Both the position numbers and the translations under genes were made by a program. Below are positions 1 through 14,929 of a DNA stretch of 16,159 nucleotides, in pieces. The notes under the pieces are model-generated. The model searched no databases. It was given only the letters and a program-made list of their open reading frames with translations, and had not been told where the DNA came from. Numbering within the stretch: the stretch's first letter is position 1; each line of letters begins with the position of its first letter. This DNA comes from a virus (Duplodnaviria; Heunggongvirae; Uroviricota; Caudoviricetes), in IMG/VR virus record IMGVR_UViG_2690316131_000017. The stretch is one strand, 5' to 3'.

Positions 1-1461
1 ATGAAAAAATTACTGCGTCTTTTTTTCCCGCTCTCACTGCGGGTACGTTTTCTGTTGGCAACGGCTGCGGTAGTACTGGTGCTTTCGCTTGCCTACGGAA
101 TGGTCGCGCTGATCGGTTATAGCGTCAGTTTCGATAAAACTACGTTTCGGCTGTTACGTGGCGAGAGCAATCTGTTCTATACCCTTGCGAAGTGGGAAAA
201 CAATAAGTTGCATGTCGAGTTACCCGAAAATATCGACAAGCAAAGCCCCACCATGACGCTAATTTATGATGAGAACGGGCAGCTTTTATGGGCGCAACGT
301 GACGTGCCCTGGCTGATGAAGATGATCCAGCCTGACTGGCTGAAATCGAATGGTTTTCATGAAATTGAAGCGGATGTTAACGATACCAGCCTCTTGCTGA
401 GTGGAGATCATTCGATACAGCAACAGTTGCAGGAAGTGCGGGAAGATGATGACGACGCGGAGATGACCCACTCGGTGGCAGTAAACGTCTACCCGGCAAC
501 ATCGCGGATGCCAAAATTAACCATTGTGGTGGTGGATACCATTCCGGTGGAGCTAAAAAGTTCCTATATGGTCTGGAGCTGGTTTATCTATGTGCTCTCA
601 GCCAATCTGCTGTTAGTGATCCCGCTGCTGTGGGTCGCCGCCTGGTGGAGTTTACGCCCCATCGAAGCCCTGGCAAAAGAAGTCCGCGAACTGGAAGAAC
701 ATAACCGCGAATTGCTCAATCCAGCCACAACGCGAGAACTGACCAGTCTGGTACGAAACCTGAACCGATTGTTAAAAAGTGAACGCGAACGTTACGACAA
801 ATACCGTACGACGCTCACCGACCTGACCCATAGTCTGAAAACGCCACTGGCGGTGCTGCAAAGTACGCTGCGTTCTCTGCGTAGTGAAAAGATGAGCGTC
901 AGTGATGCTGAGCCGGTAATGCTGGAGCAAATCAGCCGCATTTCACAGCAAATTGGCTACTACCTGCATCGTGCCAGTATGCGCGGCGGGACATTGCTCA
1001 GCCGCGAGCTGCATCCGGTCGCCCCACTGCTGGACAATCTCACCTCAGCGCTGAACAAAGTGTATCAACGCAAAGGGGTCAATATCTCTCTCGATATTTC
1101 GCCAGAGATCAGCTTTGTCGGTGAGCAGAACGATTTTGTCGAGGTGATGGGCAACGTGCTGGATAATGCCTGTAAATATTGCCTCGAGTTTGTCGAAATT
1201 TCTGCAAGGCAAACCGACGAGCATCTCTATATTGTGGTCGAGGATGATGGCCCCGGTATTCCATTAAGCAAGCGAGAGGTCATTTTCGACCGTGGTCAAC
1301 GGGTTGATACTTTACGCCCTGGGCAAGGTGTAGGGCTGGCGGTAGCCCGCGAAATCACCGAGCAATATGAGGGTAAAATCGTCGCCGGAGAGAGCATGCT
1401 GGGCGGTGCGCGGATGGAGGTGATTTTTGGTCGCCAGCATTCTGCGCCGAAAGATGAATAA
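1..1461 (+). CDS. phoQ: sensor histidine kinase PhoQ (complete, 486 aa)
   Basis: ATG at 1-3, TAA at 1459-1461. Translation shows two TM segments flanking a periplasmic domain with an acidic patch (EDDDDAEM), an H-box ([11 protein letters not shown]) and HATPase boxes (DNACKY, DDGPGI, GQGVGL). Length and sequence match my recollection of E. coli PhoQ. Confidence 0.96.
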
Positions 1462-1476
1462 ATATGCCCTTTTATC

Positions 1477-1566
1477 ACTACACCAGGTCAAGCCATTGAT
1501 TTAATTAAATAATTATCATTGAAAAAGTGCCAAAAATCGCAAATTGACTACACCATTAACTACACC
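1477..1566. repeat. three direct copies of ACTACACC (1477-1484, 1547-1554, 1559-1566)
   Basis: Read directly from sequence. Lies in the AT-rich junction between the phoQ stop and the first island gene; candidate recombination or arm-type site. Confidence 0.4.
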
Positions 1567-1582
1567 GTTCGGTGCACTGTAT

Positions 1583-1608
1583 GAAACAACGTGGAACAAA
1601 TAGACACA
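1583..1608 (+). promoter_or_regulatory. copy A of the AACAACGTGGAACAA motif (1585-1599) with a degenerate third AACAA box
   Basis: The 15-mer is identical to the one at 8980-8994 and one mismatch from the one at 14848-14862 (opposite strand). Confidence 0.45.
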
Positions 1609-1977
1609 AGAAATATACAGGCGGGTAATCTTTCCAGGGGGAAGCGCACCAATTCATGAGGGGCGTTAATGTCGATATGGGGATCCCCATAACGGGGCTA
1701 CCGGATTTTTTTCCGGTTAACATTTAATCAGGCTGGTGGGTTTTACATACCCTTGATCACCGTAATGATGATCCAGATGTGCACCTTTTCCACCAATGGC
1801 GGAAAAGCTCCAACCGTAACGATGATCGCTATGGTTGCCTCGATGGTCTGCGTGGTCATTATGACCATTCAGCCAGTGACCTTAATCAGAATTTTTCGCT
1901 AAAAAATGACGTTGGCCACGTCATCCTGATAGCACAAAATCACGTCGATTTTTAATGAACGGTTAAACCGTCTTTTT

Positions 1978-2012
1978 GTCACGGTGTGTCACTGGTTGTC
2001 ACTCTCCGTCAC
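1978..2012 (+). repeat. four GTCAC boxes at exactly 10-bp spacing (1978, 1988, 1998, 2008)
   Basis: Seen in sequence: gtcacggtgt gtcactggtt gtcactctcc gtcac. Helical phasing suggests cooperative protein binding, possibly integrase arm-type sites. Confidence 0.4.
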
Positions 2013-2126
2013 GATTGAGGTGGTGGTCATTCTGCCCGACCGCGCATTTTTGCGCTATCGGGAATATAAAACAGTTACCGCCGTCAGCTACCCAGCTCAG
2101 AATTGAGCCGCCTTTTAATCAACAAG

Positions 2127-2408
2127 TTACCGCCGTAACCGCTCCGGCTTCTTCCAGTGGTACGTGATTTTCTCCTTCTCCCGATACAGTTCAACGCGGC
2201 GATTGTAGGCCAGCATTTCCAGAACGCGGATCCGTATGTCGCGCATATCCGCATCATTAAGCTGGATACCATCACGGCGCATCACCTCAGCAACAACACG
2301 CGCATAATTTTCGGCTGTCACGCTGTCCGGCTGCGTGGTCTGTTCGTCAGCCTGCTGGCTGATTCCAGAGACGCGGCGGATTAATCGCAGTATTTCGGCT
2401 TCTGTCAT
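2127..2408 (-). CDS. hypothetical protein (93 aa), last gene of the island
   Basis: ATG at 2408 with a GAGG Shine-Dalgarno 6-9 nt upstream; sits 14 bp downstream of the TerL stop. No family recognised. Confidence 0.55.
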   Translation of the reverse strand: MTEAEILRLIRRVSGISQQADEQTTQPDSVTAENYARVVAEVMRRDGIQLNDADMRDIRIRVLEMLAYNRRVELYREKEKITYHWKKPERLRR

Positions 2409-2421
2409 GCTGCTGACCTCA

Positions 2422-4083
2422 TTACACCCCGCTAAATTCTTCCAGTTTCTGGCGGTGGCTGTCGCTTATATCAAAAGCAAAATCCTCATGCTCTGCCTGG
2501 AATGTACCAAACGCCATCAGCGCCGCCACGCTCGGGTCTATCTTGTTCGGTGATTTTTTCTTGTTCGGCTTGATATTGGCGTTCGCGTCACTCTGCATCA
2601 CGACGTTACTCATCGACCAGGACAACACCGGATCGCCACGATGCACAATCACCCTGCGGTTAACAAAAACTTCGAACGATTTCGCCGCCGGACTGAATCT
2701 GAGGTAGGTTTGCGGGAACGGCTCCACCTCAAAGCCTGCCCCCTGTAATTGCGTCCTGAGATGCGTGGCGTTCCACGTATCAAAGCCCACCAGCCTGATA
2801 TTAAATTTCTCCGCATCCTGCATGATGTCATCTCTGATCCGGTCGTAATCAATGCAGTCACCTGGCGTTGTGCGTATCCAGCCCGCTTTAGCCCACTGGC
2901 GATAGACAGCGCGGTTTTTATTGGCGGGGTTCTGTAGCTGGAACTCCGGCAGATAATGACGGGAAACCAGCATGATATTTTTACCGACCGGAAAGGCATA
3001 GCACACGCTGGAAATATCGCTGGTTGATGATAAGTCCAGCCCCGCGTAACACTCCTGCCCGTGTAAATCTTCCTCCGTGAACGTTCCGGCACACTCAGCC
3101 CATGCGCCGTTACCCATCCACGGGGTAGCCCCCTGGCACCAGATATTAAATCGCTTTGTCATCATCTCCACCCATTGCGACGGAATACCCCGCGCTTTCT
3201 GGATGGTTGAGGCCAGTTTTTCACGATCCACGGAAACATCGATGTTAGGGTTAGCCTTTATCCACATCGCCGGATCATCAACCTCGTTTTCGTCGTCCAG
3301 TTCGTAAATCAGTACAAAAATTGAATCGTTGACCTCTTCGCCGTCCAGGATCTGGCAGCAATAATCATAGTGCTGCTTACAGGCTGAAACGACGTTACTG
3401 CCCGATGTGGTAATGGCAAATAACAGCCCTTCGGGACGTGCGCCCATCCCCAGCTCAAGCGCGGAATAAACGCCGTTATCGGGGTGTAGGTGGTATTCGT
3501 CCACGATGGAAAGGCTTGGGTTTGTGCCCTCGATGGTTGCCGCTTTTGCTGCCAGCGGCTTTAACAGGCTGTTGCTTTTCGGGTGCATCACCTTGTGGGC
3601 CTGAATATTCACCCGCCTGCGTAACGGTCGGGATAAAAGGCACATCTGACGCGCATCATCAAAAACGATCCGCGCCTGGTCACGGCTCACCGCTGCGGTG
3701 TAAATATCCTGCTGCCCGTTCTCCATAATCAGAAACCAGTTAGCCAGAATCGCGGCGGTCGTGGATTTCGCATTTTTGCGCGGCACTTCGATAAAGGCGC
3801 TCGTGTATTTGCGCCGTCCGGTGGCCTTAACCTTAAAGCCGAGGATGCACGCAAAGGCGAACTGCTGCCACGGCTCCAGCTCAATGGGTCTGCCACGCAT
3901 CGGCCCTTTTACGTGCGGGCACACCCTGGAAAAGGCAATAAACCGCTCCACAACCTCACGATCGAACGTGTAAAGGGGGCTTTCAAGGTCCGAAAAGTAC
4001 CGTTTAACGGCCTGTTTCAGCCGTTTACAGGCCGGAATTTTGCCCGTTTTTACGTCTTCTGCGTACTTATTCCAGGCGGTCAA
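2422..4083 (-). CDS. terminase large subunit (HK97-type)
   Basis: 553 aa with an N-terminal ATPase P-loop-like segment (PRKNAKST) and a C-terminal nuclease-type region with acidic residues. The ORF-track start at 4083 is TTG with a GAGGA Shine-Dalgarno, overlapping the TerS 3' end by 17 nt. Confidence 0.88.
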   Translation of the reverse strand: MTAWNKYAEDVKTGKIPACKRLKQAVKRYFSDLESPLYTFDREVVERFIAFSRVCPHVKGPMRGRPIELEPWQQFAFACILGFKVKATGRRKYTSAFIEVPRKNAKSTTAAILANWFLIMENGQQDIYTAAVSRDQARIVFDDARQMCLLSRPLRRRVNIQAHKVMHPKSNSLLKPLAAKAATIEGTNPSLSIVDEYHLHPDNGVYSALELGMGARPEGLLFAITTSGSNVVSACKQHYDYCCQILDGEEVNDSIFVLIYELDDENEVDDPAMWIKANPNIDVSVDREKLASTIQKARGIPSQWVEMMTKRFNIWCQGATPWMGNGAWAECAGTFTEEDLHGQECYAGLDLSSTSDISSVCYAFPVGKNIMLVSRHYLPEFQLQNPANKNRAVYRQWAKAGWIRTTPGDCIDYDRIRDDIMQDAEKFNIRLVGFDTWNATHLRTQLQGAGFEVEPFPQTYLRFSPAAKSFEVFVNRRVIVHRGDPVLSWSMSNVVMQSDANANIKPNKKKSPNKIDPSVAALMAFGTFQAEHEDFAFDISDSHRQKLEEFSGV

Positions 4084-4423
4084 GCTCGTCCTCTTCTTCT
4101 GTTTCCGGTGGATTTTTACGGCGGCTTATCGGGTCAAAACCGAGCAAAGAGGCCATTTTTATCATCACTCTTTCAGCGTCGGATTTTGCGCTTAATGCGG
4201 GGTTTCTGCTCTCACCGCCCTGACTGTTAACAATGCTGAACCCGCGCGCCGCAAGGTCTGCAACGGCTTTCCGGTAAATGGAGTAGTTGACACAATACAG
4301 TTCCAGATTGCTCCAGTCGGCGGGGGTCAGGTCTCCCCGTTCCGCAAGCTGCCTAGATTTTTCCCGCCACTGCTTCACGGCGATATCATCCAGGTAGGCG
4401 GGGGCTTTCGGTGGTCTTGACAT
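4067..4423 (-). CDS. terminase small subunit, P27 family
   Basis: 118 aa; the pattern (LTPADWSNLELYCVNYSIYRKAVADL ... NPALSAKSDAERVMIKMASLLGFDPISRRK) is typical of P27-type TerS; acidic C-terminus. ATG at 4423. Confidence 0.85.
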   Translation of the reverse strand: MSRPPKAPAYLDDIAVKQWREKSRQLAERGDLTPADWSNLELYCVNYSIYRKAVADLAARGFSIVNSQGGESRNPALSAKSDAERVMIKMASLLGFDPISRRKNPPETEEEDELDRLE

Positions 4424-4546
4424 GCTTATTTTTTCGCCAGATTATTTTTCAAAAAATTCCCGTGCATAAAAATTTGAGGAGGCGTTCGGTGCCCGGCGGA
4501 GTCGGGTTTGTCCTGAAAACGCCCCCCACCCCGTCATACAGCCTCA
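4424..4546. other. candidate cos/packaging-site region upstream of TerS
   Basis: 123-bp non-coding gap between the HNH-side small ORF and TerS, containing a G/C-rich tract (aaaacgccccccaccccgtc). In HNH plus P27-TerS cos phages the cos site usually lies near terS. Position is inferred only. Confidence 0.3.
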
Positions 4547-4729
4547 TCAGCGATTGCGAAAACATTCCATAACCTCGCGGTCACGGTCGGTTAATCGCTT
4601 CGCTGTGATGCGTTCTGCGCGTCCTGACGCTTTATCTTTATGCCCTGTTTCCTGTGTCTTCCATGCGTCACGCTGCCTTATAAGTCCACGGATAAGGCGG
4701 TTTTGTTCCCGCTCATTCATCAGCGTCAT
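4547..4729 (-). CDS. small basic hypothetical protein (60 aa)
   Basis: ATG at 4727-4729 inside the longer track ORF 4547-4951, overlapping the HNH 3' end. Basic composition. Uncertain. Confidence 0.35.
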   Translation of the reverse strand: MTLMNEREQNRLIRGLIRQRDAWKTQETGHKDKASGRAERITAKRLTDRDREVMECFRNR

Positions 4730-5153
4730 ACATCCAGTTATTGCGGTTAGCGGCCCGTTCTTCCTCTGCACGAAATCCACCTGCGGCACGCTTGCTTTTT
4801 GTTGCCGGATCAAGCCATTTCGTTTTCTGGTTATGACACGCCTGGCACAATGGTTGATGGTTCCATTCGGGCCAGAAGAGAACATCATCACCGCCATTAA
4901 TCGGGATAATGTGATCCACCACCACGGCGGGCGTATATATCCCCTTCTCAAGGCATCGCACGCATAACGGGTTTTTACTCAGATACATGGCGCGGTATTT
5001 GTCCCACTGTCTGGAATATCCACGCGCGCGGCGGTGTCCTCGTCTGGCATCCTCTGCACGCCATGCCGCCCGCCTGTGCTCCTCACACTTGCCGGATTTA
5101 ACGCGCCTGTTACAGCCTGGTTCTGTGCATCGTCTTAATGGTTGCCACGGCAT
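4713..5153 (-). CDS. HNH endonuclease (terminase-associated)
   Basis: 146 aa with Cys-rich Zn-binding segments and an HNH core (DHIIPINGG ... NHQPLCQACHNQKT). ATG at 5153 overlaps the connector stop (ATGA). Confidence 0.85.
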   Translation of the reverse strand: MPWQPLRRCTEPGCNRRVKSGKCEEHRRAAWRAEDARRGHRRARGYSRQWDKYRAMYLSKNPLCVRCLEKGIYTPAVVVDHIIPINGGDDVLFWPEWNHQPLCQACHNQKTKWLDPATKSKRAAGGFRAEEERAANRNNWMYDADE

Positions 5154-5449
5154 CAGTACACCCCCACATCACGGTAAGCCGTCCAGAGTGCGCCAATCGT
5201 CATGGGTACGCGTGTTTTTGCGTTATCCGCGACAATCTGGCGATTCTCATACAGGTGAGCGATAAACATCATGCAGCCAATCTTTATGGCTGGCGTGAAC
5301 TCCAGCCCGTCATCAAAGCGCCTGCCTATGTGTATCTGGCACGCCTCAAGCGATGCGGCAATGTATCCGCTGATTAACTGGTCTTCCTCGTCTCCATCGA
5401 TACGGCAATGGAGTTTCACTTCTTCCAGGGTGATAAGTTCTTCTGTCAT
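5153..5449 (-). CDS. gp6-like head-tail connector protein
   Basis: 98 aa; N-terminal pattern (ITLEEVKLHCRIDGDEEDQLISGYIAASLEACQ) is typical of the gp6-like connector family. ATGA overlap with the upstream gene. Confidence 0.78.
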   Translation of the reverse strand: MTEELITLEEVKLHCRIDGDEEDQLISGYIAASLEACQIHIGRRFDDGLEFTPAIKIGCMMFIAHLYENRQIVADNAKTRVPMTIGALWTAYRDVGVY

Positions 5450-5784
5450 TTTTCCGCGCCCTCACGACAAAGAATTTCAAGGCGTGTCCTGGCGACATCC
5501 GGCAACGGCTGCCCGATGATATTCAGTACACGCCCCGCCAGCGGCCCCGTACTGACCTTTATCCGGCTGGTGGCGTTGATGTCCTTCCGGTACCGTATCC
5601 AGATCCTTACGGTACCAATCGCCAGCTCTGCGCCCGATGAAATGGCCTCCTTGCTGCTGATCATGTTCACGCTTGCCCAGAGTGTGTGACCGTCCTCCCA
5701 CGTTTCGAGTATTTCGCCCGTCATGGCTCTGGTCTGTTTCAGGGTCTGAATCGTTATCCTGTCACGCAGTCGCCCTATGTTCAT
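5446..5784 (-). CDS. phage head closure / head-tail adaptor protein
   Basis: Pattern RITIQ ... WASV ... IRYR ... ATSRI is typical of head-tail joining proteins. I prefer the ATG at 5784 (ATGA overlap with the portal stop) to the track start at 5826. Confidence 0.75.
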   Translation of the reverse strand: MNIGRLRDRITIQTLKQTRAMTGEILETWEDGHTLWASVNMISSKEAISSGAELAIGTVRIWIRYRKDINATSRIKVSTGPLAGRVLNIIGQPLPDVARTRLEILCREGAEK

Positions 5785-6992
5785 TCCGTTTTTTCTCCCT
5801 CGCTGATTTTTACTTCCTGTTTCCATGCCTGGCTGAACTCATCACCACCATCACGCGGTGACAGTCCTTCACGTTCGCGGGCTTCGTTCGGGCACATAAC
5901 GCCGGATTTGATGCCGCGCTCATAGGTGGCAAAGCGTTCGCCAGGTGTGGCCCGTAACAGGTCCGCGCTGTCAAACTCCACCTGATACCGGATACCAGGT
6001 ACAGGCGAGGCCACCAGCAGGGCGTTTTTTATCTGCTGCTCAAAGTTCGCCAGCCACGGGCGCATCGTCATGGTGAGAAATGCGCGGCTTGCCTCGCTGA
6101 AATTGCTGTAGGTGCTGTTGCTGTATTCCTGCAAAAAAATCGGCGAGACGTTGAACATTCGGGCGATGTCTTCAATGGTAAAGCGACGGGAGGCCAGCCA
6201 TTCAGCATCCTGATTACTCATGCCCAGCTGCTGATAGCTCATACCCCCTTCAAGGATGGGCGTTTTTCCGGCGTTTCTGGCCCCTTTGTAGCGTTCCAGT
6301 GCGGCTAATGCCTGTTTGCCCTTCACGCCGTCCAGCCATTCGCCTGACGTGATAACCCCTGCCGCCATCATGCCATCACGCATCACGCTCGCGCCGTGGC
6401 GTTGTTGGGCCAGCCCAAGCCCCAGCGATTCGCGGCAGATGGTTACAGGTGAGCGCCCCATAAAGCCGTCATCCGTGGAGTAACGAAGGTGAAGTACTTC
6501 CCACGGTAAATAGTTGTGGGTGTTTCCGGTGTAGGCGTCAGTGATGCAATAGCGCCAGTTGTGTTCTCCTGTCTGCTCCACGTTCACCGACTGCGGCGGG
6601 TAAGGATGTAAAGCCGCCGGAAAACCATCACGCCCCCACTGAATAACCGCATAAGCATTACCGTTTAACAGGCAGTGGCGGATCATCATTCGCTTAAACT
6701 AGTAGGGGGTTTGCCATGCGTTCGGGCGCTCGTTGAAGATGTGATCGACCGGATGAGAATCAAGCCACTCGCGGGCCTCCTTCCCCTTCTCATTGCGTAC
6801 CAGGTACAGGTAGCATGGCATAGTAGCCACCGCCTCAGAGATGACCGTAACGGCGTTCATGACGGCAGGCAGTGATTCCGCTGTCCCCGATGATACGTAC
6901 TCACCCGCCCCCGTGTTCGATGTGCCGGCCAGCGCCATAAATTCATCAAGCGTCATGCTGCGCTGCTCTTTTTTTCTTCTGAAAGGCCACAT
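5781..6992 (-). pseudogene. HK97-family portal protein interrupted by one in-frame TAG (codon 98, plus coordinates 6699-6701)
   Basis: Track ORFs 6699-6992 (97 aa, portal N-terminus AVMNAVTVISEAVATMPCYLY) and 5781-6689 (302 aa, portal core with FTIEDIARMFNVSP) are in the same frame, separated only by TAG and three sense codons. Combined length ~403 codons is portal-sized. Confidence 0.8.
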
Positions 6993-6993
6993 A

Positions 6994-7566
6994 TCACACC
7001 CCCGCTAAATCCGCCCACCAGCGGCGATTATCCGCACGCGGCATTTTTTCGGGGTGCTGCTCATACAGGGAACGGCGGGCCAGCTCCACGCCGGAATCGG
7101 GGTAAGCCGGTACCGATGTAACGGTAATTTCGTACAGTTCCGCCACCAGCACGGTGCGCACGCATGGATCTGTTGTGGTATCCCATACATCCTTACGGGA
7201 GCGAAAGCCAAAGCTCATGCCGGATATATCACCACGTTTAACCAGTTCGATAACGTCGCGCCCTGTACTGGTATCCGGTGGGGTCAGTTCAAAGCGTAAC
7301 CCTGTTTCATCCTCTTCCAGTTTCAGCGTGCCGGAACGGGTGCGCCCCAGTAACATACTGTGGTCATGCTCATACAGGCCGCGAACGTCATTACCCGCCG
7401 CAAGCCATTCAGTAAACGCCCCCCGCTGGAATTTTTCGTAAAACTCACCCCATAACAGTTCTGAAAGCTTATCCCAGCGAACAACGTAGCCTGTAAGCGT
7501 GTTGCTGCCGCTGGTGGTGATTTCCGATGACCGGATTTCCATACTCTTCATAATTTTTTCACCCAT
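6994..7566 (-). CDS. HK97-family prohead protease (S78-type)
   Basis: 190 aa; the pattern (GYVVRWDKLSE ... GAFTEWL ... HDHSMLLGRT ... GMSFGF ... SVPAYPDSGVE) matches the prohead protease family. Stop is 1 nt before the portal ATG. Confidence 0.85.
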   Translation of the reverse strand: MGEKIMKSMEIRSSEITTSGSNTLTGYVVRWDKLSELLWGEFYEKFQRGAFTEWLAAGNDVRGLYEHDHSMLLGRTRSGTLKLEEDETGLRFELTPPDTSTGRDVIELVKRGDISGMSFGFRSRKDVWDTTTDPCVRTVLVAELYEITVTSVPAYPDSGVELARRSLYEQHPEKMPRADNRRWWADLAGV

Positions 7567-7575
7567 AAAACACTA

Positions 7576-7595
7576 AAGGGGCTTTTAAGCCCCTT
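7576..7595 (-). terminator. stem-loop between the capsid and protease genes (AAGGGGCTT..AAGCCCCTT), candidate partial terminator
   Basis: 9-bp inverted repeat in the 39-bp capsid-protease gap, followed on the minus-strand RNA by a U-rich stretch (UAGUGUUUU). Confidence 0.4.
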
Positions 7596-7605
7596 CTGTA
7601 TGCTG

Positions 7606-8763
7606 TTAATCGTCGTCCTGTGGCAGTTCCAGAATCTTGATCGCGTTCGAATCCACCACGCCACCGCCTAAATATTTCTGCGTGAAAATTTTGATGAAGC
7701 CCGGCTCTGTGAGGTTGTCCGGTCTGGTGCGAACACCTGTTTCGTGATCAACAATGTAGTAACCGCGTTTGAAGTCACCCAGGGCAATAACGTTATCAGG
7801 CATAAACTCCAGATATTCGACCGGAAGGCCCAGCAACGTATCAGGATCACCCGCCTGTAAACGGTCACGCCAGATGTAATCACCGTTCGCGTTCTTCACC
7901 TTCTGGAGTTTTGCCGCCGTCGTGGAGTTAACCACCCAGACCGCGTTTTTGCGGTATTTTTTACGTAATGCAAATTTCAGGTCGATCAGCGGGTCCGCAG
8001 ATGTCCACGCCAGAGATTCGGAAGGTTTAATTACCTGCAACGTACCAAAATCACGCTCTTTGTCGTTCTTCTCTGCACGGGGTACGGATAAAAAGCCTTT
8101 TGCTTTTTTGTCACCGTCGCCCACAACCAGATCGCTTTCTTCGGTTTCCGTGAAGGTGTCGCCAATCTCGCCCGTCAGCCATGAAAGGATGTCCACATCG
8201 GAAAAATCCACGATTTCCTGTGTGGTGCGCGGGTACGCATAGACCGGATACAGCTTAATGCTCACCTCGTTAATCTGCGGGGTGCTGGTCTGTTCGCGTG
8301 CCTTACCCTCTTCACCGTGGTTAACGGTCGCACCGCCAGCGGAAACAAGCTGCTTAAACTCGTTGCTGCTGATTTTCTTCACGGTACAGATGCGGCGCAT
8401 GGTGGATTCATCCGCCAGCATTCGCATGATTTCGGTGTTCAGTTCGGGGATAACGGTATAACCACCATCAGCGGGAACGCCTGTACTTAATGCGCGGGTT
8501 TCACCCGTCAGAATGTAGTTTCGTAGTTCTGCGGGGTCAGTGGTCTGACTGCTTTTACCTGGCTTGCTGCGCTCTTCGTCTGCAATGGCTTCAAGGCGGG
8601 AAATGTCTTTATCGAGGGATTCAGCTTTAGCGCGTAATTCGTCAAATTTTGCGCCCTCAGCATCGTTAAGACTGCGGTTTTCTTTTTCAGCGTTCTCCAG
8701 CATGTCGCGCATCTGATTTTTAATGGCGGTTTTCTGCTGGCGTAATTCGATTATTCTCGGCAT
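7606..8763 (-). CDS. major capsid protein, HK97 fold, with N-terminal coiled-coil delta (scaffold) domain
   Basis: N-terminal ~100 aa is heptad-rich and charged, followed by an HK97-like capsid body. No separate scaffold gene. First ATG at 8763; the track ORF extends to a TTG at 8808. Confidence 0.85.
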   Translation of the reverse strand: MPRIIELRQQKTAIKNQMRDMLENAEKENRSLNDAEGAKFDELRAKAESLDKDISRLEAIADEERSKPGKSSQTTDPAELRNYILTGETRALSTGVPADGGYTVIPELNTEIMRMLADESTMRRICTVKKISSNEFKQLVSAGGATVNHGEEGKAREQTSTPQINEVSIKLYPVYAYPRTTQEIVDFSDVDILSWLTGEIGDTFTETEESDLVVGDGDKKAKGFLSVPRAEKNDKERDFGTLQVIKPSESLAWTSADPLIDLKFALRKKYRKNAVWVVNSTTAAKLQKVKNANGDYIWRDRLQAGDPDTLLGLPVEYLEFMPDNVIALGDFKRGYYIVDHETGVRTRPDNLTEPGFIKIFTQKYLGGGVVDSNAIKILELPQDDD

Positions 8764-8978
8764 AAAAAAAAGTCCTGGGGTTAAGTAAGGAACTCCAGGA
8801 CGCGGCAAACACTCAACCGTTTTTCATAAGGAAATCAGCAATCGCACCGATCGTTTTCCCGCCTGGTAATGAATATTGGCGAGCACATTAACAGGCGGGA
8901 AAGTGGCCCCAGCGTCCTGGCACCACGGGCGAGAATAATCATGATTCAGTTCGGGTAAAATATGCCGATCCGCTCAGT

Positions 8979-9008
8979 GAACAACGTGGAACAACCACGA
9001 ACAAATAA
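8979..9008 (+). promoter_or_regulatory. three 10-bp-phased AACAA boxes overlapping the -35 of the packaging-operon promoter
   Basis: GAACAACGTG GAACAACCAC GAACAAATAA. On the minus strand the proximal box (TTGTTC) sits 16 bp upstream of TATTTT (8957-8962), about 190 bp upstream of the capsid ATG. Confidence 0.5.
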
Positions 9009-9018
9009 TTTACAAAAA

Positions 9019-9046
9019 ATAACAAAAAGCCGGATTGCTCCGGCTG
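9019..9046 (-). terminator. intrinsic terminator (stem AGCCGGA/TCCGGCT, loop TTGC, U-tract on minus strand)
   Basis: Perfect 7-bp stem followed on the minus-strand RNA by UUUUUGUUAUUUUUU; 19 bp downstream of the stop of gene 9065-9289. Confidence 0.75.
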
Positions 9047-9064
9047 TATGTGCTGTATGGGTGC

Positions 9065-9289
9065 TCAGTCTCTGATCCCTTTCAGAAATTCTATCAATGC
9101 ATCTGTCTGTTCAGGATTTACTGCCAGCATTTCACCGGATAGCGCGCAACGAACAAAACCATGATGATCCTTTTCAATCAGCGCCCCCGTTTCCAGAAAT
9201 GCGCGGTAATCAGTGATATTCATCGTCTCCATGTTGTCAGCATGGTATTTATCACGCTGTTTAAGTATCTCATCAAATTTCATCGGCAT
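9065..9289 (-). CDS. hypothetical protein (74 aa) in a terminator-flanked cassette
   Basis: ATG at 9289 with a GAGGAA Shine-Dalgarno 8 nt upstream (the track ORF runs further up to 9367). No family recognised. Confidence 0.5.
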   Translation of the reverse strand: MPMKFDEILKQRDKYHADNMETMNITDYRAFLETGALIEKDHHGFVRCALSGEMLAVNPEQTDALIEFLKGIRD

Positions 9290-9373
9290 TGCGTTTTCCT
9301 CTGTTGTGTCTGTTTGTTTCAGATAGTAACTATGCCGGACCGTGACGAAAAGCCAGTAGTGCTCCATACCGTT

Positions 9374-9399
9374 TCAAATGACGCAAAAAAAGCCGGATT
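9374..9399 (-). terminator. intrinsic terminator, near-identical copy of the one at 9019-9046
   Basis: Same 23-bp sequence aaaaagccggattgctccggctg; on the minus strand the stem-loop is followed by a U7 tract. Lies 32 bp downstream of ORF 9431-9592. Confidence 0.75.
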
Positions 9400-9430
9400 G
9401 CTCCGGCTGCGTGGTGTGGTTCTGATATTC

Positions 9431-9592
9431 CTACTCTGCTAATTTGCTCAGCCCCATGTCTGCGTAAGTGCGATTTACTGCATTTCTCAGGTCTGCGTAG
9501 TTCTCCGTTGGCGGCTCCGGTGTGCCCTTGCTGCTCTGTTTTACCTGCGGGTCGTCCACCAGCCGCCCGTAAGCGGCTATCTGTGCCGTCAT
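9431..9592 (-). CDS. hypothetical small protein (53 aa)
   Basis: Not in the ORF track (under 60 aa). ATG at 9590-9592 overlaps the stop of the upstream gene (ATGA); hand translation gives MTAQIAAYGRLVDDPQVKQSSKGTPEPPTENYADLRNAVNRTYADMGLSKLAE; TAG at 9431-9433. Confidence 0.35.
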   Translation of the reverse strand: MTAQIAAYGRLVDDPQVKQSSKGTPEPPTENYADLRNAVNRTYADMGLSKLAE

Positions 9593-9903
9593 AATTCCAC
9601 CTCTCCGGTTTTAACGTTGATGGTTGTTACCTGTTCCGCTTCGGCAATCTCCCGTTCTGTCAGCGTGGCAAAGTTTGCCGCCGCCGTGGTCATGAATGCG
9701 CTTATCAGGTCGGGATGTTCCTTCGCGTATCCTTCCCGCGTGTGGCGGTCTATCGTTCTGATTGCCACCTTTAAGGTGTGCTCAGTCATGTCTAACGCTT
9801 TATATTTTGGCTCTGTTCTGTCTCTGCGAATTTTGGTCATTTGTCGCCCCTGATTCATGTTTTCGGCTGGCATGTTTGTTAAGTGATTTTGATGTATGCG
9901 CAT
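9589..9903 (-). CDS. hypothetical protein (104 aa; alternative start at 9840 gives 83 aa)
   Basis: ATG at 9903 is preceded by a strong Shine-Dalgarno (GAGGGGGGTGA); an internal ATG at 9840 also has an AGGGG Shine-Dalgarno. First gene downstream of the ori. No family recognised. Confidence 0.5.
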   Translation of the reverse strand: MRIHQNHLTNMPAENMNQGRQMTKIRRDRTEPKYKALDMTEHTLKVAIRTIDRHTREGYAKEHPDLISAFMTTAAANFATLTEREIAEAEQVTTINVKTGEVEL

Positions 9904-9953
9904 TTATTTTCACCCCCCTCGTTTAAAAAGTTTTGAGTTGTGCCTCCCCCCCC

Positions 9954-10172
9954 TCTACCCATCTACCCGAATGCTCATCATGTCAGTAATGGCGCGGCTT
10001 TCAGCGGGTAGATAGCTTTTTTGGCTCCTCTACCTGCCGTCTACCCTGCTACCTGAAATTGATAAAATCAGGTAGAAGAGGTAGAGAGGTTTTATTAGCC
10101 TTCTACCTAGCCCTCCACCCACTTATCATGTTGAATAATATGCGTTTATCTCATTCAGGTAGATGGGGTAGA
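9954..10172. repeat. replication-origin iteron field: at least 11 copies of TCTACC(C/T) / GGTAGA in both orientations with AT-rich spacers
   Basis: Copies near 9954, 9962, 10006 (inverted), 10029, 10040, 10049, 10071 and 10080 (inverted), 10102, 10158 and 10166 (inverted). Immediately downstream of the primase stop at 10189; flanked by AT-rich tracts and a C8 homopolymer at 9946-9953. Confidence 0.65.
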
Positions 10173-10188
10173 GGGCTTTTACAAAAAA

Positions 10189-11943
10189 TTATAAAAACGC
10201 GTCACAATCATCCGTTGTAATTGCGTTGGTCTGCGTTACTCCCTTAACTTTCCGCGTAATATATTCATGTCCGTAAACTTTTGCCGCTGGCTTCATGGCC
10301 TTGCTGAACTCAGCCACGTTTAGCGGTTTGCTCCTGCCTGCGTATGCCATAAACGCCAGATAGACGCGGTAAAGGCTGTTCCTGGTCGTGTACTTCACTG
10401 AATCGCCACCGCCACCCATCATCAGGCCGCGCGCTTCCTCCAGAAAATTCAGGAACTGGCAAAACTCAATAACCGGATCCGTCTGTTGCTTTATTGCCAG
10501 TGCTTCATCACCGTCGCGCTGTTCCAGGAGTAAAGCCCGTGCCTTTTCAGGGTCGGCAAAGTTCGCCAGTAATCGGCGGATAATCACAGGGATTTCAGCC
10601 GCAATCTTTTCCGGTAGCTCCCTGTCTTTTTCGGCCTCACTGACGATATTGTCGAAACGGAAAATCACGCGACGACGTGCCACACCTCCGGCCCGTTCGG
10701 TGAATATCATCGGGTTGTTGTTGGTCGCCAGCACCACCGCCCTGATTACCGCCGTGAAACGCTTTTCATATTTCGGGTTAATTTCCACGGGGTCGCCGCC
10801 CGTGATTTTCTTGATGCCCGTTCCTTCGCCTGTATATTTCGGCTGGTCTGCCAGGACGATAAGACGACTCCCGACAACCTGCGCACGTCCACCAGCATCA
10901 TCAAGCGATGTCATCTCAGCGCTTACCGTGTTCTGTTTCCCTGCCAGAAGGCTGGCTATGTGTGTGAATGTACTTTTACCGCTCCCGCCGTCTCCGGTGG
11001 CCTCAATAAACATCTGCCAGTCGTACCGGTTCGCCATAATCATGTACAGCGCGGCACATATACGCATCATCTTGCGCGGGTCTTTTCCGGCTGCGTGCTC
11101 AAGCCATTTATGAAAGTTTGGCGCGTTGTCGCGGATATTCTCCCCTGGTGCTGGTGGCGTGTACTCAATGCCGTTATGCGTGGTGATCCAGTTCTCCGGC
11201 GTGTGCGGGGAAAATTCCCCCGTTTTCAGGTCAAGCACACCATTGGCGAACGGCAGCAAATCGCCGGACGGTTCGCCCATTGGTTCGGCAATAACTTTTA
11301 ACGCTTCCACGGTGTTATTGATTACGCGCTTGCTGAAAGTGGCCCTGTGCTCTGAATAGATCGCCACCATTTCGCGGCTCAGTGCCATTGTGCTGACCGG
11401 ACACCATACCCCGCCGCGCCATACGTGAACGATTTCACTTTCAGGATGTACGCAAACGCCATCAAAGCGCCCGGCAAGCAGCTGCGCGCGCTCACTGTCC
11501 GCCATCTGCGAAAGTTGCGCCTTTTGCTTTACCGGAAGCTCAATGACCAGACCATCAGAAAGATTCTGGCGCTCACGGGCCAGATATTCGCGCCAGTTCT
11601 CCACCTCCTGAACGTGCATTCCCTCAGGGTAAAAATTTGCATCCTGTACACCTGCCGCCGCCAGCTTCTGACCAATCGCCTTTATCATTACAGGCTCAAG
11701 ATGTCCGGCCCTGAATATGCGTACTGATTTTCGGCCTTCCGGCACAATTTGCAGCTTATCCAGTTCGGATAACTGCTGCTCCCCAAGCCACACAGGAGGC
11801 TCATTATCTCCGGCCATACGCGCGTCATGTTCCTGCCATTGTTTTGCGTGTGACCAGGCATCACTACCCGCAAAAATAATGACTTCTGTTTCTTTGTGTT
11901 TTATGCCGCGTGACTGCTGTTTTACGTTCGGTGCCAGTTTCAT
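10189..11943 (-). CDS. P4-family primase/helicase (replication initiator)
   Basis: 584 aa with a Walker A P-loop (GDGGSGKST) in a D5/P4-type helicase region preceded by a primase-like N-terminal domain. ATG at 11943 overlaps the upstream stop (ATGA). Adjacent to the iteron ori. Confidence 0.88.
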   Translation of the reverse strand: MKLAPNVKQQSRGIKHKETEVIIFAGSDAWSHAKQWQEHDARMAGDNEPPVWLGEQQLSELDKLQIVPEGRKSVRIFRAGHLEPVMIKAIGQKLAAAGVQDANFYPEGMHVQEVENWREYLARERQNLSDGLVIELPVKQKAQLSQMADSERAQLLAGRFDGVCVHPESEIVHVWRGGVWCPVSTMALSREMVAIYSEHRATFSKRVINNTVEALKVIAEPMGEPSGDLLPFANGVLDLKTGEFSPHTPENWITTHNGIEYTPPAPGENIRDNAPNFHKWLEHAAGKDPRKMMRICAALYMIMANRYDWQMFIEATGDGGSGKSTFTHIASLLAGKQNTVSAEMTSLDDAGGRAQVVGSRLIVLADQPKYTGEGTGIKKITGGDPVEINPKYEKRFTAVIRAVVLATNNNPMIFTERAGGVARRRVIFRFDNIVSEAEKDRELPEKIAAEIPVIIRRLLANFADPEKARALLLEQRDGDEALAIKQQTDPVIEFCQFLNFLEEARGLMMGGGGDSVKYTTRNSLYRVYLAFMAYAGRSKPLNVAEFSKAMKPAAKVYGHEYITRKVKGVTQTNAITTDDCDAFL

Positions 11944-12239
11944 TTTTTACCCCTGAATCCGTTAATCATGGTTTTCAGCTTCTGGATGTTTGCCCGTGCC
12001 CTGGCGTTGCTGGTGGGCACGTTATGCGGCGCGGTCTGTACCAGAGAAAAATCACGCCGGAACTGATAAACAGGCATCACGCAATCATATTCGTAACCTT
12101 CACGGCGGTAAGTTACGCACCGTCCCGCCACGCCCTTAATCATTACCGTGCCGCCGTACTGGTCGCGGTAAATATCGCCGCGCGTAAATTTAGGGTGAGT
12201 GTTGCCACTGGCAGTTAAGCCAGAATATTTAAGTTTCAT
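11940..12239 (-). CDS. hypothetical protein (99 aa)
   Basis: ATG at 12239 with a GGAGAA Shine-Dalgarno; translationally coupled to the primase. No family recognised. Confidence 0.55.
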   Translation of the reverse strand: MKLKYSGLTASGNTHPKFTRGDIYRDQYGGTVMIKGVAGRCVTYRREGYEYDCVMPVYQFRRDFSLVQTAPHNVPTSNARARANIQKLKTMINGFRGKK

Positions 12240-12244
12240 TATTT

Positions 12245-12478
12245 TTATTCTCCGGTGTGCTGTTCTTTATATCTGTCGTGCAATAGATCTATTTCTTGCA
12301 GTTCCATTATTACAGGCTCAAGAAGCGTTATTAATGCCGTGGCAATTCTTGATTTTTGTTTGTCGCGTTCATTGTCGCCAAGTGTTTCAAGCCATATGCG
12401 CAATATTTCCAGCATGTTTTCACTGTGAGAAAGTGCAAGAAATGCGCGGTCTATTGTTTCGAGGTAAATATCACGCAT
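12245..12478 (-). CDS. hypothetical protein (77 aa)
   Basis: ATG at 12478 overlaps the upstream stop by 8 nt (ATGCGTGA); begins MRD. Confidence 0.5.
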   Translation of the reverse strand: MRDIYLETIDRAFLALSHSENMLEILRIWLETLGDNERDKQKSRIATALITLLEPVIMELQEIDLLHDRYKEQHTGE

Positions 12479-12704
12479 GGCTTACATCCTCAGGAAATTT
12501 TCTTCTGTAACGCGCCTCTGCCACATATTCCGCATAATCGGCGGCGATATTCAGTACATCAAGCCCCGTTGATTTATATTCTCTCGTGGAAAGTAAGAAA
12601 AAAGCCGCTCTAATAAGTTCTGGCATTGACGAAAGCGCATCAGCCGCATCATCAGGAACGCCGGAAAATTCCTGTTTCAGGGAATTAAAACGATCATCAC
12701 GCAT
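12471..12704 (-). CDS. hypothetical protein (77 aa from internal ATG; track ORF to 12731)
   Basis: ATG at 12704 is preceded by a GGGGGG Shine-Dalgarno and overlaps the upstream stop by 8 nt with the same ATGCGTGA junction; also begins MRD. Confidence 0.45.
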   Translation of the reverse strand: MRDDRFNSLKQEFSGVPDDAADALSSMPELIRAAFFLLSTREYKSTGLDVLNIAADYAEYVAEARYRRKFPEDVSHA

Positions 12705-12936
12705 AACCCCCCCCATTTTCACAATCAGCAATCAGGATGGCTTTGGCCTCATTCAGCGCCATATCCGCACTAAGTTGCATAACCGCCAGCGAATGAGGAA
12801 CGAAAGCCCCGGCATATTCTGTTTCACTGGTGGCGTGCTTATGCGCCCTGTCAGCAATAACAGAAATATCAATAAGCGCGTGCATCAGCGTAGTGAGCGC
12901 GGCGGCAGCTGCGTCCGGACGGATGTTATTGCACAT
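12697..12936 (-). CDS. hypothetical protein (79 aa from internal ATG; track ORF to 12993)
   Basis: ATG at 12936 is preceded by a GGAGGGG Shine-Dalgarno. Ala-rich. Confidence 0.45.
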   Translation of the reverse strand: MCNNIRPDAAAAALTTLMHALIDISVIADRAHKHATSETEYAGAFVPHSLAVMQLSADMALNEAKAILIADCENGGGYA

Positions 12937-13159
12937 GGTGTACCCCTCCGCATTTTTTTTCGTTAGAAATAAGCGTTCTTCTTTCCTGTTCATCGCTCAG
13001 GAATACGCAGACCTCACCGCTAAGGCGTTTAAGTAAGCCGATGATTGCCCCTGATTCGCTGTCGGTCATCATGCCAGGGTAATCCTCTGCCAGTGCGCAA
13101 ATGACTTCGATTTGGTGGGCGCGTTCTGCTGCCTGTTGTAGTGTGATTTCCTGGCTCAT
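12926..13159 (-). CDS. hypothetical protein (77 aa from internal ATG; track ORF to 13225)
   Basis: ATG (MSQEIT...) overlaps the stop of the upstream gene (ATGA). Coordinates follow the ORF-track frame. Confidence 0.45.
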   Translation of the reverse strand: MSQEITLQQAAERAHQIEVICALAEDYPGMMTDSESGAIIGLLKRLSGEVCVFLSDEQERRTLISNEKKCGGVHHVQ

Positions 13160-13356: not shown

Positions 13357-13453
13357 AGCTACCTCGATACTTTCGCTATCGTTGGTGGTTAGACGCCCTG
13401 CATGTGTTGCGAGCACTGCGGGGCGTTGCTTAATTTGAGTGACAAAACTCAAA

Positions 13454-13540: not shown

Positions 13541-13561
13541 CCATTTAAGTGAGGTGCATCA

Positions 13562-13759: not shown

Positions 13760-13816
13760 TCACTATCAGCGCCGTGGTGTGAGGAACTACGGCGCATTTC
13801 TTTACAGGAGTAGACA

Positions 13817-14002: not shown

Positions 14003-14079
14003 TGACAGATTTGCCAACCAGCCAAAAATGTGGCATCGTTGTCGATACATAGTGTAATCAACATGTATATCATATTTTT

Positions 14080-14912: not shown

Positions 14913-14929
14913 AAAAAACACGAAAAAAA

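Follow-up and report, generated by a model that had tools for sequence, protein, structure and literature searches.

The window analyzed here, the whole 16,159-nt stretch of DNA, begins with an intact phoQ gene whose product agrees with K-12 PhoQ at 486 of 486 residues. The first real gene past phoQ is an island gene encoding 93 aa on the minus strand (2127-2408); no host genes are found there, and a P4-type tyrosine integrase gene occupies the opposite island end (Table 1). The original prediction had placed an insertion at or right after the phoQ 3' end, based on the lack of a downstream core gene and on the K-12 gene order, in which roxA (ycfD) follows phoQ within a few tens of bp. It was correct on each of these points; the empty K-12 locus has an uninterrupted spacer of 75 bp between phoQ and roxA. 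The alignment to an island-free phoQ-roxA locus that it had proposed, which we conducted by matching the end of phoQ to 5,426 complete E. coli genomes, gave an end of homology at window positions 1466-1469 in every one of them. At least 80% of 1300-2200 is present in only 50 of these genomes.

Table 1. Features of the phoQ-side island end and the integrase gene of the window.
Feature	Position	Strand	Remarks
phoQ	1-1461		Stop codon TAA at 1459-1461
Host-side core-type half site TGAATAAA	1455-1462	+	Includes phoQ stop codon; same in K-12 attB
Overlap (crossover), 7 bp, TATGCCC	1463-1469	+	Within 10-bp core AAATATG(C/T)CC, 1460-1469
Island-side core-type half site C' TTTTATCA	1470-1477	+	Perfect inverted repeat of TGATAAAA
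Third ACTACACC copy	1477-1484	+	Not conserved
IHF consensus AATCAATGGCTTG	1489-1501	-	Beside A/T-rich tract, between core and arm sites
Arm module, ~75 bp	1543-1616	+	Near-invariant across 5 island variants
Paired ACTACACC, putative integrase arm-type sites	1547-1554, 1559-1566	+	12-bp period
Three ACAA repeats, 10-bp phase	1584-1589, 1594-1599, 1604-1609	+	Part of arm module
Imperfect palindrome, 22 bp, CGATATGGGGA/TCCCCATAACG	1673-1694	both	11-nt arms, one mismatch
Hairpin ACCGGA-T6-TCCGGT	1700-1717	both	dG -9.4 kcal/mol
Chi site GCTGGTGG	1732-1739	+	Column block invariant in alignment A1; lost only in L020 and L069
45-codon hydrophobic ORF	1765-1902	+	ATG at 1765; 49 aa from TTG at 1753 in ORF list
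Hairpins A, B, C	1785-1807, 1812-1836, 1853-1867	both	dG -9.5 to -13.7 kcal/mol each
Putative intrinsic terminator	1924-1900	-	Stem ATGACGT/ACGTCAT, loop GGCCA, then U-run
Weak terminator-like hairpin ACGGTTAAACCGT + CTTTTT	1959-1977	+	dG only -4.4 kcal/mol
P4-type tyrosine integrase gene	14930-16159	-	Opposite island end

These sequence comparisons identify 1462-1976 as the junction between host and island. That the segment might instead be ordinary intergenic DNA of the host, conserved in island-free strains, was named in the original prediction as the finding that would speak against it, and this reading is excluded: the segment is missing from K-12 and from most of the 5,426 genomes at the phoQ locus, and the same sequence is found at the tqsA locus of other strains, joined there to the same kind of island. 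The insertion parts roxA from phoPQ and substitutes a new phoQ 3' UTR. The suggestion that the 3' UTR and termination are thereby altered is plausible, as a simple scan for intrinsic terminators came up empty both for the phoQ-roxA spacer of K-12 and for the plus strand of the window ahead of 1959-1977, although we expect that the effect on expression of phoPQ or roxA is probably small.

The nature of the island was deduced from a locus (L001) that is 99.6% identical to it and sits between phoQ and roxA. The RefSeq annotation of L001 lists an integrase, an AlpA-type HTH regulator, a primase, a major capsid protein, a prohead protease, portal, head-closure and connector proteins, an HNH endonuclease, TerS and TerL, with no tail or lysis genes annotated. 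Pfam searches confirmed the Arm-DNA-binding (PF13356) and integrase domains, AlpA and Terminase_4. Taken with the ORF map of the window, these assignments give the gene content of a capsid-forming PICI (cf-PICI), namely an element of 10-15 kb having its own head and packaging genes without those for tail or lysis. We therefore consider it very probable that 1462-1976 is the integrase-distal end of a cf-PICI of ~14.8 kb in the established phoQ-roxA(ycfD) attachment site. The phoQ-side junction is thus already known in kind, being the end of a phage satellite in a published attachment site. Relative to the cf-PICI prototype, EcCIEDL933, the island agrees in gene content and size with the description of the family, and it is likened to it on that description. 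The cf-PICIs use six attB sites in E. coli, four of them in common with classical PICIs, and after induction by a helper phage are packaged into their own capsids with helper tails (Alqurainy et al., 10.1101/2022.09.08.507074).

The 93-aa terminal gene matched only phrog_1561, of unknown function, in PHROGs, and had no match in Pfam and no relative in the PDB. Based on this, we rejected by sequence its assignment as an Rpp protein. A phage collection searched with 1470-2126 gave no match.

The experimentally studied PICI at the phoQ site is EcCICFT073 (Fillol-Salom et al., 2018; PMC6092414), and its published att core at ycfD-phoQ is GGACATATTT, of which the window core AAATATG(C/T)CC is the reverse complement; the two islands thus have an identical attachment site and 10-bp core. 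EcCICFT073 and related Gram-negative PICIs have the same layout as the window island (integrase, alpA and primase, with one transcription direction), and the phoQ-side arm of EcCICFT073 aligns with the window nearly mismatch-free to ~1810, beyond which its trailer is unlike that of the window. Unlike EcCICFT073, the window island encodes capsid, portal, protease, HNH, TerS and TerL proteins of its own, and no lambda cosN was found at 1462-2126. The core determined here for the tqsA islands, TGCTGTTAT, likewise equals the published ATAACAGCA.

At the junction, the host-side half site TGAATAAA agrees by eye at six of eight positions with TGATAAAA, the C site that terminates the int-proximal arm of the island. 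An attP core reconstructed from the sequence, TGATAAAA-TATGTCC-TTTTATCA, has two 8-bp half sites that are perfect inverted repeats of each other, with 7 bp between them. The core AAATATG(T/C)CC / AAATATGTCC is present at both island ends in L001 and in a further locus, L003, and once in K-12; the window contains only the phoQ-side copy, and the int-end copy was read from the near-identical L001 and from L003. The homology break, empty site, shared core, inverted half sites and arm repeats that we found are together what is expected of a tyrosine-recombinase att site. Based on this arrangement, the integrase, which probably binds the core-type half sites, would recombine attP TGATAAAA-TATG(T/C)CC-TTTTATCA with the host site TGAATAAA-TATGCCC-ATACTTCA, with strand exchange within the 7-bp overlap, two bases past the phoQ stop codon. 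Integration would leave phoQ intact and the old phoQ-roxA spacer with roxA, and excision is predicted to produce the attP junction TGATAAAATATG(T/C)CCTTTTATCA and a restored attB, TGAATAAATATGCCCATACTTCA. Exact-pattern scans of viral and metagenome contigs gave no match to the predicted excised attP junction.

The first ~150 bp of the island would function as a recombination arm, made up of the core half site, an IHF-type bend site and the arm module. The IHF consensus AATCAATGGCTTG is one of three matches to WATCAANNNNTTR within the window, and the tqsA-type islands retain a consensus match at this site (AATCAATGTGTTA) despite different N positions, which is consistent with IHF binding there. 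The original prediction listed three repeats in this region, and the 16-kb window does contain exactly three copies of ACTACACC, which start at 1477, 1547 and 1559 and are all in plus orientation, relative to a chance expectation of 0.24 and with three copies reached in 0 of 200 shuffles. However, only the 1547/1559 pair is conserved. The positions of the copy at 1477-1484 read ACTATACC in L001, ACCACAGC in O157-type islands and ACTACATC in EcCICFT073, and that copy probably arose by chance. The pair at 1547-1566, along with the palindrome discussed below and the junction itself, is beyond chance.

Support for the pair as integrase arm-type sites comes from the other end of the island, where a copy of the arm module (75 nt, 77% identity) adjoins int, so that the conserved ACTACACC pair and its counterpart at the integrase end make up a set of four sites. 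In L001, ACTACACC is confined to the two island ends (4 copies in 36.9 kb vs 0.39 expected). Islands at tqsA, in which the integrase is 90% identical, have conserved arms and different cores. In an island at thiM-rcnR, with an integrase that is 66% identical, the motif is GACCACACA, occurring twice per end (4 copies in 20.6 kb vs 0.14 expected), with the same spacing and the ACAA array kept. Comparison of these sequences establishes both the duplication of the arm module and its co-variation with the integrase, and suggests that the integrase binds the ACTACACC arm sites. The helically phased ACAA repeats are candidate sites for an AlpA-type excisionase or another bending factor. A scan of genome contigs with the arm-site pattern gave only Shigella flexneri and no cross-genus covariation set.

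This organization resembles that of phage lambda, whose att site has inverted core-type sites, a 7-bp overlap, arm-type sites in both arms, an IHF site between them and Xis sites. The island has counterparts of the inverted core sites and 7-bp overlap, of arm-type sites in two arms and of the IHF site between core and arms, and its phased ACAA array beside the arm sites is reminiscent of the lambda Xis sites. Unlike lambda, the island has a P4-type integrase (Arm-DNA-bind_3) rather than lambda Int, and each arm has one identical arm-site pair within a duplicated 75-bp module. Transcription of int runs away from att, and retroregulation of int of the lambda sib type was rejected for this reason. 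No convincing sigma-70 promoter for int was detected in the 170-bp int-proximal arm, and nothing convincing emerged when both arms and the reconstructed circle junction were scanned for promoters. An arm promoter that drives int solely in the excised circle is therefore unsupported.

The remainder of the segment, 1620-1976, is the non-coding trailer of the single long minus-strand operon of the island, and appears to be a mosaic of palindromes and hairpins traded among PICIs and lambdoid phages. Conservation between islands is 75-95% across 1620-1870, which may reflect mere linkage to int and not function. The perfect 14-bp palindrome ATGGGGATCCCCAT reported in the original prediction is present at 1677-1690 and is nested within the longer 22-bp palindrome, which is single-copy in the window, is predicted to form a hairpin on either strand (dG about -10 kcal/mol) and is kept in all PICI variants. 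Outside PICIs, the 22-bp palindrome is found upstream of ninB in contigs of lambdoid type, as well as in a Dhillonvirus, a virulent siphovirus. The hairpin at 1700-1717 is doubtful as a real structure because its left stem arm varies in sister islands (CCTGGC or CCTGT); the T-run and CCGGTTAA are conserved. The 150-nt stretch with hairpins A to C folds better than shuffled sequences (minus strand, z = -3.8; plus strand, z = -2.3). In tqsA-type islands, hairpin C has two compensatory pairs (TGGTCAT.ATGACCA to TAATCAT.ATGATTA), and 156 extra nt lie between hairpins B and C, with z = -8.3 for this longer version.

The ATGACGT..ACGTCAT hairpin that had been noted at about 1906-1924 has its arms at 1906-1912 and 1918-1924, and its U-run is on the minus strand and not the plus strand, from which we deduce that it would end the island operon and is not a hairpin trailing the 45-codon ORF. 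As determined by ViennaRNA, the minus-strand structure has a 10-bp stem with a dG of -10.7 kcal/mol followed by the U-run. It is situated ~200 nt past the end of the last island gene (stop at 2127) and is present in the islands with the same trailer type, although it was absent from the output of the simple consensus scan. A stable stem-loop, a U-run and a position downstream of an operon are the marks of an intrinsic terminator, and we expect that 1924-1900 acts as one. In the integrated state it would halt island transcription before its antisense entry into phoQ, and in the excised circle it would halt transcription crossing attP into int.

The original prediction also described the 45-codon ORF as a possible small membrane peptide. 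The ORF exists, is hydrophobic and lies at 1765-1902 as described, and a type I toxin encoded by it or by a nested 26-codon ORF from the ATG at 1822, with the hairpins as mRNA or antitoxin, would be in keeping with the hairpin-rich surroundings often seen at type I loci; the window resembles the loci of Ibs, Ldr, Hok and TisB in having a short hydrophobic ORF amid non-coding, hairpin-rich DNA of a mobile element. In addition, an MVCVVIMTIQ stretch is in frame in the O157-type variant, and the 156-nt insertion of the tqsA-type islands is a multiple of three. Unlike those toxin genes, however, the ORF is intact only in the lineage of the window itself. Translation from the homologous ATG in closely related sister islands yields unrelated peptides of 12 to 38 aa, or longer ones in islands with frame-extending insertions, with unrelated C-termini, and in EcCICFT073 the frame is broken by a 1-nt deletion at codon 8. 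No AGGAG-like Shine-Dalgarno motif precedes the ATG at 1765, PGAP annotates no gene at 1765-1902, PHROGs had no match for the small ORFs at 1765-1902 (+), 1743-1868 (-) and 1556-1723 (-), and Rfam searches gave no family of toxin or antitoxin RNAs. Furthermore, the conserved in-frame stretch is palindrome C, whose changes compensate at the DNA level. A membrane peptide is thus exceedingly improbable; judged from the DNA comparison, the ORF is most likely a spurious chance ORF, and would be a by-product of palindromic sequence and not a gene. Some of the same features could instead indicate that ~1740-1980 encodes a structured small RNA regulating island or host genes, either as a plus-strand RNA that starts at a weak promoter (1742-1769), runs to the hairpin at 1959-1977 and is antisense to the operon end, or as a processed 3'-UTR fragment of the minus-strand operon. 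Consistent with this are the single promoter-like (+) and terminator-like sites at those positions, the folding of the 150-nt stretch and of its longer tqsA-type version, the compensatory pairs of hairpin C and a related, conserved hairpin-rich element of 130 nt that many E. coli PICIs have at their 3' end. Nevertheless, we regard a small RNA as unlikely, based on promoter and terminator counts that were not above those of shuffles, the weakness of the plus-strand terminator, the large insertions and deletions between islands in this mosaic region and the fact that many of the hairpins are perfect loop-less palindromes, as DNA-level sites would be. When twenty of these 130-nt elements from trailers were analyzed with RNAalifold, the covariation term was about zero, with only 3 of 27 pairs compensatory. 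Searches of the whole window against Rfam 15 at the gathering score, on either strand, had no match, those of 1400-2200 and the long tqsA-type trailer at E values up to 10 returned only noise, and ARAGORN detected no tRNA or tmRNA.

The conserved block is also situated just downstream of terS, terL and the 93-aa gene, as might be expected of a satellite packaging site (cos or pac) for the terminase, and nearby are repeated units, each combining a short hairpin with an IHF consensus (2042-2135), as well as four GTCAC motifs in 10-bp phase (1978-2012). Such a role is very unlikely, as the same arm occurs in islands whose packaging modules are unrelated, those of cf-PICIs (HNH, P27-type TerS, TerL) and those of classical PICIs with a different terS, and a classical O157 PICI has both of its exact lambda cosN copies upstream of the 93-aa gene and not in the arm. 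A lambda-type cos in the arm or trailer was rejected, as a search for lambda cosN GGGCGGCGACCT within 1462-2126 allowing up to 3 mismatches found none, while the O157 PICI, as positive control, gave two exact copies. By analogy with the HK97 gene order, we presume that cos is in the gap upstream of terS, at ~4424-4546. There is a small chance that the hairpin- and palindrome-rich trailer (hairpins A-C, the 22-bp palindrome and the related 130-nt element) is a conserved functional module of E. coli PICIs, with the high Chi density perhaps part of the same picture. If so, the trailer might serve as a structured RNA or insulator that keeps antiterminated island transcription out of int and phoQ, or in RecBCD-proofing and as a recombination hot spot at which accessory cassettes and trailer segments are swapped between satellites and lambdoid phages.

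All 13 exact Chi sites in the window are within the island, relative to 0.52 expected. Their density in the island is about 0.9-1.07 per kb, with roughly equal orientations, which is higher than that of phage LLS (1 per 1.86 kb; PMC12315714). Chi-rich lambdoid phages that have neither Rec modules nor inhibitors of RecBCD (Genome Res 2025, PMC12315714, citing Bobay et al., 2013) are similar to the island in their strong enrichment in GCTGGTGG; satellites are not mentioned in that paper. Any role for the Chi sites or palindromes in the island is conjectural.

The phoQ-adjacent finding is fully explained in ordinary terms as the attachment of a cf-PICI that leaves phoQ untouched. What is added here is a map of the arm at base level, with core half sites, overlap, IHF site, paired arm sites and phased array. 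We did not find a comparable dissection of an att arm or trailer in the PICI literature, as far as it was accessible, and a full-text literature search with five characteristic sequences returned no paper. Such a map could help in planning experiments on excision and integration, or in engineering PICI vectors. The island's Chi density, the shared 22-bp palindrome and the hairpin-rich 3' trailer common to PICIs are possibly worth a separate look.

The window opens at the phoQ start codon, its phoQ stop codon (TAA) occupies 1459–1461, and the encoded product is identical to K-12 PhoQ at 486 of 486 residues. With 1300–2200 as the query, the phoQ end was matched by 5,426 of 5,426 complete E. coli genomes, the island-free matches ending at 1466–1469, and at least 80% of the query was present in only 50 of the 5,426. 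In K-12, a spacer of 75 bp separates the 3′ end of phoQ from roxA (ycfD). The break in island-free homology bears out the original prediction of an insertion directly after phoQ, which had also correctly placed roxA close behind phoQ in K-12, and the alignment with an island-free locus that it proposed as a check located both the junction and the attachment (att) core.

Reverse-complemented, the shared core AAATATG(C/T)CC corresponds to GGACATATTT, which a supplementary table gives as the att core of the phage-inducible chromosomal islands (PICIs) EcCICFT073 and EcCIRM12579 at ycfD-phoQ (Fillol-Salom et al., 2018, PMC6092414). Based on this match, the attachment site is already in the literature. 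Similarly, the core found here for related islands at tqsA, TGCTGTTAT, equals the published ATAACAGCA (Fillol-Salom et al., 2018, PMC6092414). When the two ends of the island are joined, the resulting attP core is TGATAAAA-TATGTCC-TTTTATCA, in which perfect 8-bp inverted repeats enclose a 7-bp spacer, the arrangement of classical core-type sites flanking an overlap region. Integration spares the phoQ stop codon, and the entire old spacer is kept, now adjoining roxA. Position 1467, within the crossover region, is polymorphic: the overlap in the window is TATGCCC, as in the K-12 attB, and TATGTCC is found instead at both junctions of L001 and of L003 (a near-identical island locus and a classical O157 PICI at phoQ, respectively), as well as on the phoQ side of EcCICFT073.

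Features of the phoQ junction and the island (window coordinates; a spaced dash marks the junction)
Feature	Position	Sequence or remark
phoQ-side junction		GAATAAATATG(C/T)CC – TTTTATCAC
roxA-side junction, L001 and L003		TTGATAAAATATGTCC – ATACTTCAC
K-12 empty site		GAATAAATATGCCC – ATACTTCAC
Host half site	1455–1462	
Overlap	1463–1469	
Island half site	1470–1477	
Hairpin ACCGGA-T6-TCCGGT	1700–1717	left arm unconserved
Chi site	1732–1739	
Hairpins A–C	1785–1867	dG about -10 to -14 kcal/mol each
Chi positions	1732, 2787, 5566, 6011, 7015, 7143, 7510, 9556, 10889, 11150, 12009, 13237, 15268	region 1470–16159

All real genes 3′ of phoQ are carried on the minus strand, and the window stops at the integrase start codon, with the second junction falling outside it. 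The entire element, of ~14.8 kb, is seen between phoQ and roxA in L001 (NZ_CP073589), which is 99.6% identical over window 1300–2200. Its annotation comprises a tyrosine integrase, an AlpA-type HTH regulator, a primase, the major capsid protein, an HK97-type prohead protease, a portal, head-closure and connector proteins, an HNH endonuclease, a P27-type TerS, TerL and a 93-aa protein, and includes neither tail nor lysis genes. This is the gene set of capsid-forming PICIs (cf-PICIs; 10.1101/2022.09.08.507074). The phoQ-side arm of EcCICFT073 is nearly free of mismatches to the window from the core to ~1810, and diverges beyond. Here a cf-PICI occupies the ycfD-phoQ attachment site already published for E. 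coli PICIs, and the junction reading is both correct and already documented in the literature.

In a simple scan for intrinsic terminators, the phoQ-roxA spacer of K-12 gave none, and the plus strand of the window gave none before 1959–1977, where there is a weak hairpin (-4.4 kcal/mol). Consequently, phoPQ read-through would now be predicted to enter the island in place of roxA.

An alignment of five island variants, three from phoQ (two cf-PICIs, one classical PICI) and two from tqsA, showed a block at ~1494–1840 conserved at 75–95%, with 1544–1628 nearly invariant. The three ACTACACC repeats reported in the junction are indeed present, at 1477, 1547, and 1559 (3 copies in the 16-kb window vs. 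0.24 expected, a number reached in 0 of 200 shuffles), but the copy at 1477–1484, which adjoins the core half site, is not conserved, being ACTATACC, ACCACAGC or ACTACATC in relatives. L001 has only four copies in 36.9 kb (0.39 expected), all four in direct orientation with a 12-bp period; one pair is equivalent to window 1547–1566 and the other lies at the opposite end, ~26 bp from the integrase start. A 75-nt module enclosing the pairs is shared by the two island ends at 77% identity. In the tqsA islands, where the integrase is 90% identical, the arms are the same and the core differs. In a PICI between thiM and rcnR the integrase is only 66% identical and the motif is GACCACACA, again one pair per end (4 copies in 20.6 kb vs. 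0.14 expected); this island keeps the array of ACAA repeats (~10-bp phase) after the motif pair, and the AlpA proteins of the two islands share 69% identity. An IHF consensus match lies between the core and the arm sites (1489–1501) and is kept in the tqsA variant despite different N positions, and the integrase carries the Arm DNA-binding domain PF13356. Based on the paired motifs, the module, the IHF match, PF13356 and the lack of conservation of the 1477–1484 copy, we read 1462–1616 as a standard recombination arm and the paired ACTACACC motifs as putative integrase arm sites. An excisionase (AlpA type) or other bending protein may bind the phased ACAA array. Such an architecture is as known for lambda and P4-type integrases. 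The PICI literature examined describes neither the arm sites nor the trailer, and a full-text search with five characteristic sequences gave no match; the arm-site and trailer map refines a known kind and does not define a new one.

The trailer (~1620–1976) is non-coding and mosaic, with sister islands differing by indels of 2–156 nt and by segment replacement. On the minus strand, the 150-nt stretch with hairpins A–C folds at z = -3.8; hairpin C has two compensatory pairs in tqsA-type islands, the remaining changes being one-sided or disruptive. The ATGACGT/ACGTCAT inverted repeat noted at 1906–1924 was confirmed and is followed on the minus strand by a U-run (dG -10.7 kcal/mol). Lying ~200 nt past the last island gene in the downstream direction, it is a predicted minus-strand terminator that would end the island operon ahead of an antisense run into phoQ and, in the excised circle, would stop transcription crossing attP into int.

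The 45-codon ORF does exist, from the ATG at 1765 to 1902, but its proposed identity as a small membrane peptide is unsupported since the frame is not conserved in relatives. When 26 distinct relatives were translated from the homologous ATG, a product of 45 aa appeared only within the window's own lineage; elsewhere the products were unrelated in sequence and 12, 24, 33, 35 or 38 aa long, or longer where an insertion extended the frame, and in EcCICFT073 one nucleotide is deleted at codon 8. No Shine-Dalgarno motif precedes the ATG, a PHROG search with the ORF returned no match, and the interval from phoQ to the 93-aa gene is empty in the PGAP annotation. The sole stretch in frame in several variants, MVCVVIMTIQ, overlaps palindrome C, in which the substitutions compensate for one another at the DNA level. 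On these sequence grounds we conclude that 1765–1902 is most likely a chance ORF. The trailer and arm were also rejected as a packaging site, as islands whose packaging modules are unrelated carry the same arm and a lambda cosN search of 1462–2126, allowing up to 3 mismatches, was negative.

The perfect palindrome ATGGGGATCCCCAT at 1677–1690 was likewise verified and grows to 11-nt arms with one mismatch (1673–1694), with one copy in the window. An exact-pattern scan of IMG/VR found it in 91 stretches, approximately half of them non-PICI: 35–55-kb lambdoid-type contigs with a module AAAAAGGCCTCCGGAGAGGCCCTGGC-TGTCGATATGGGGATTCCCATATCGCTTGTATGG between variable genes. In the one such contig examined (L041), the module lies just past a gene stop codon and upstream of ninB, and the transcribed strand has the palindrome (7386–7405) followed by a canonical GC hairpin and a U-run. 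In the virulent Dhillonvirus GeorgBuechner (L100 2501–2531) it lies ~14 nt past a helicase gene, flanked by 30-nt direct repeats. It looks like a portable intergenic hairpin. The 22-bp palindrome, CGATATGGGGAT(C/T)CCCATA(T/A)CG, is therefore not PICI-specific.

Just beyond 1976 are four GTCAC motifs (1978–2012; TGTCAC three times, then GTCAC) at an exact 10-bp spacing, confined to islands with the window's trailer type, which could be a protein-binding array. Repeat units at 2042–2083 and 2094–2135, and in L003 at 16590–16770, consist of a short hairpin (GCGCAxxxxTGCGC or GCTCAGAATTGAGC), ~14 nt, and (A)TCAACNNGTTAC, a match or near-match to the IHF consensus. There are one to four units per island, the last overlapping the 3′ end of the 93-aa gene, and they are reminiscent of palindrome-plus-IHF (RIP/RIB-type) elements. 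In many E. coli PICIs, the stretch separating the last gene from the att arm contains a conserved hairpin-rich element of ~130 nt (sister loci L006 3225–3520, L102 2440–2625, and L103 2450–2620), found at about 84 IMG/VR loci and sometimes in two copies ~434 nt apart. Its order is GATACCC..GGGTATC, GAGTAAG..CTTACTC, GAGTTGCAGATCTGCAACTC, inverted Chi; it has no Rfam match and covariation is thin (3 of 27 pairs). The window's trailer is a shorter form without this element, and the tqsA-type trailer (296 nt) folds at z = -8.3.

The classical PICI L003, which also occupies the phoQ site, contains two exact lambda cosN sequences, at 17109–17120 (+) and 17976–17987 (-), flanking terS and both upstream of the 93-aa gene. 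This pair fits the cos1/cos2 arrangement of EcCICFT073, whereas the cf-PICI has no lambda cosN in the window. In the window, a 120-bp gap upstream of terS (4424–4546, minus strand) contains a G-rich run, GGGGTGGGGGGCG. In HK97 the gene order is HNH, cos, terS, and by analogy we propose that 4424–4546 is likely the cf-PICI cos site.

Chi (GCTGGTGG) occurs in 13 exact copies in the island (6 plus, 7 minus; 0.52 expected) and in none in phoQ. Four different PICIs have 0.88–1.07 Chi per kb vs. 0.17–0.25 per kb in their host flanks. This enrichment may reflect RecBCD protection of linear or rolling-circle satellite DNA; satellites are absent from a paper on Chi-rich lambdoid phages (PMC12315714). 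The island's divergent regulatory region contains the palindrome TGTGCGCACA at 13455–13464, 13478–13487, and 13525–13534 (two exact, one degenerate), and these copies look like operators. A related PICI in L103 lies inside a prophage major capsid gene (helper-embedded) and has a gene of an abortive-infection family between trailer and junction (1603–2364). The island end may be a hot spot for accessory genes.
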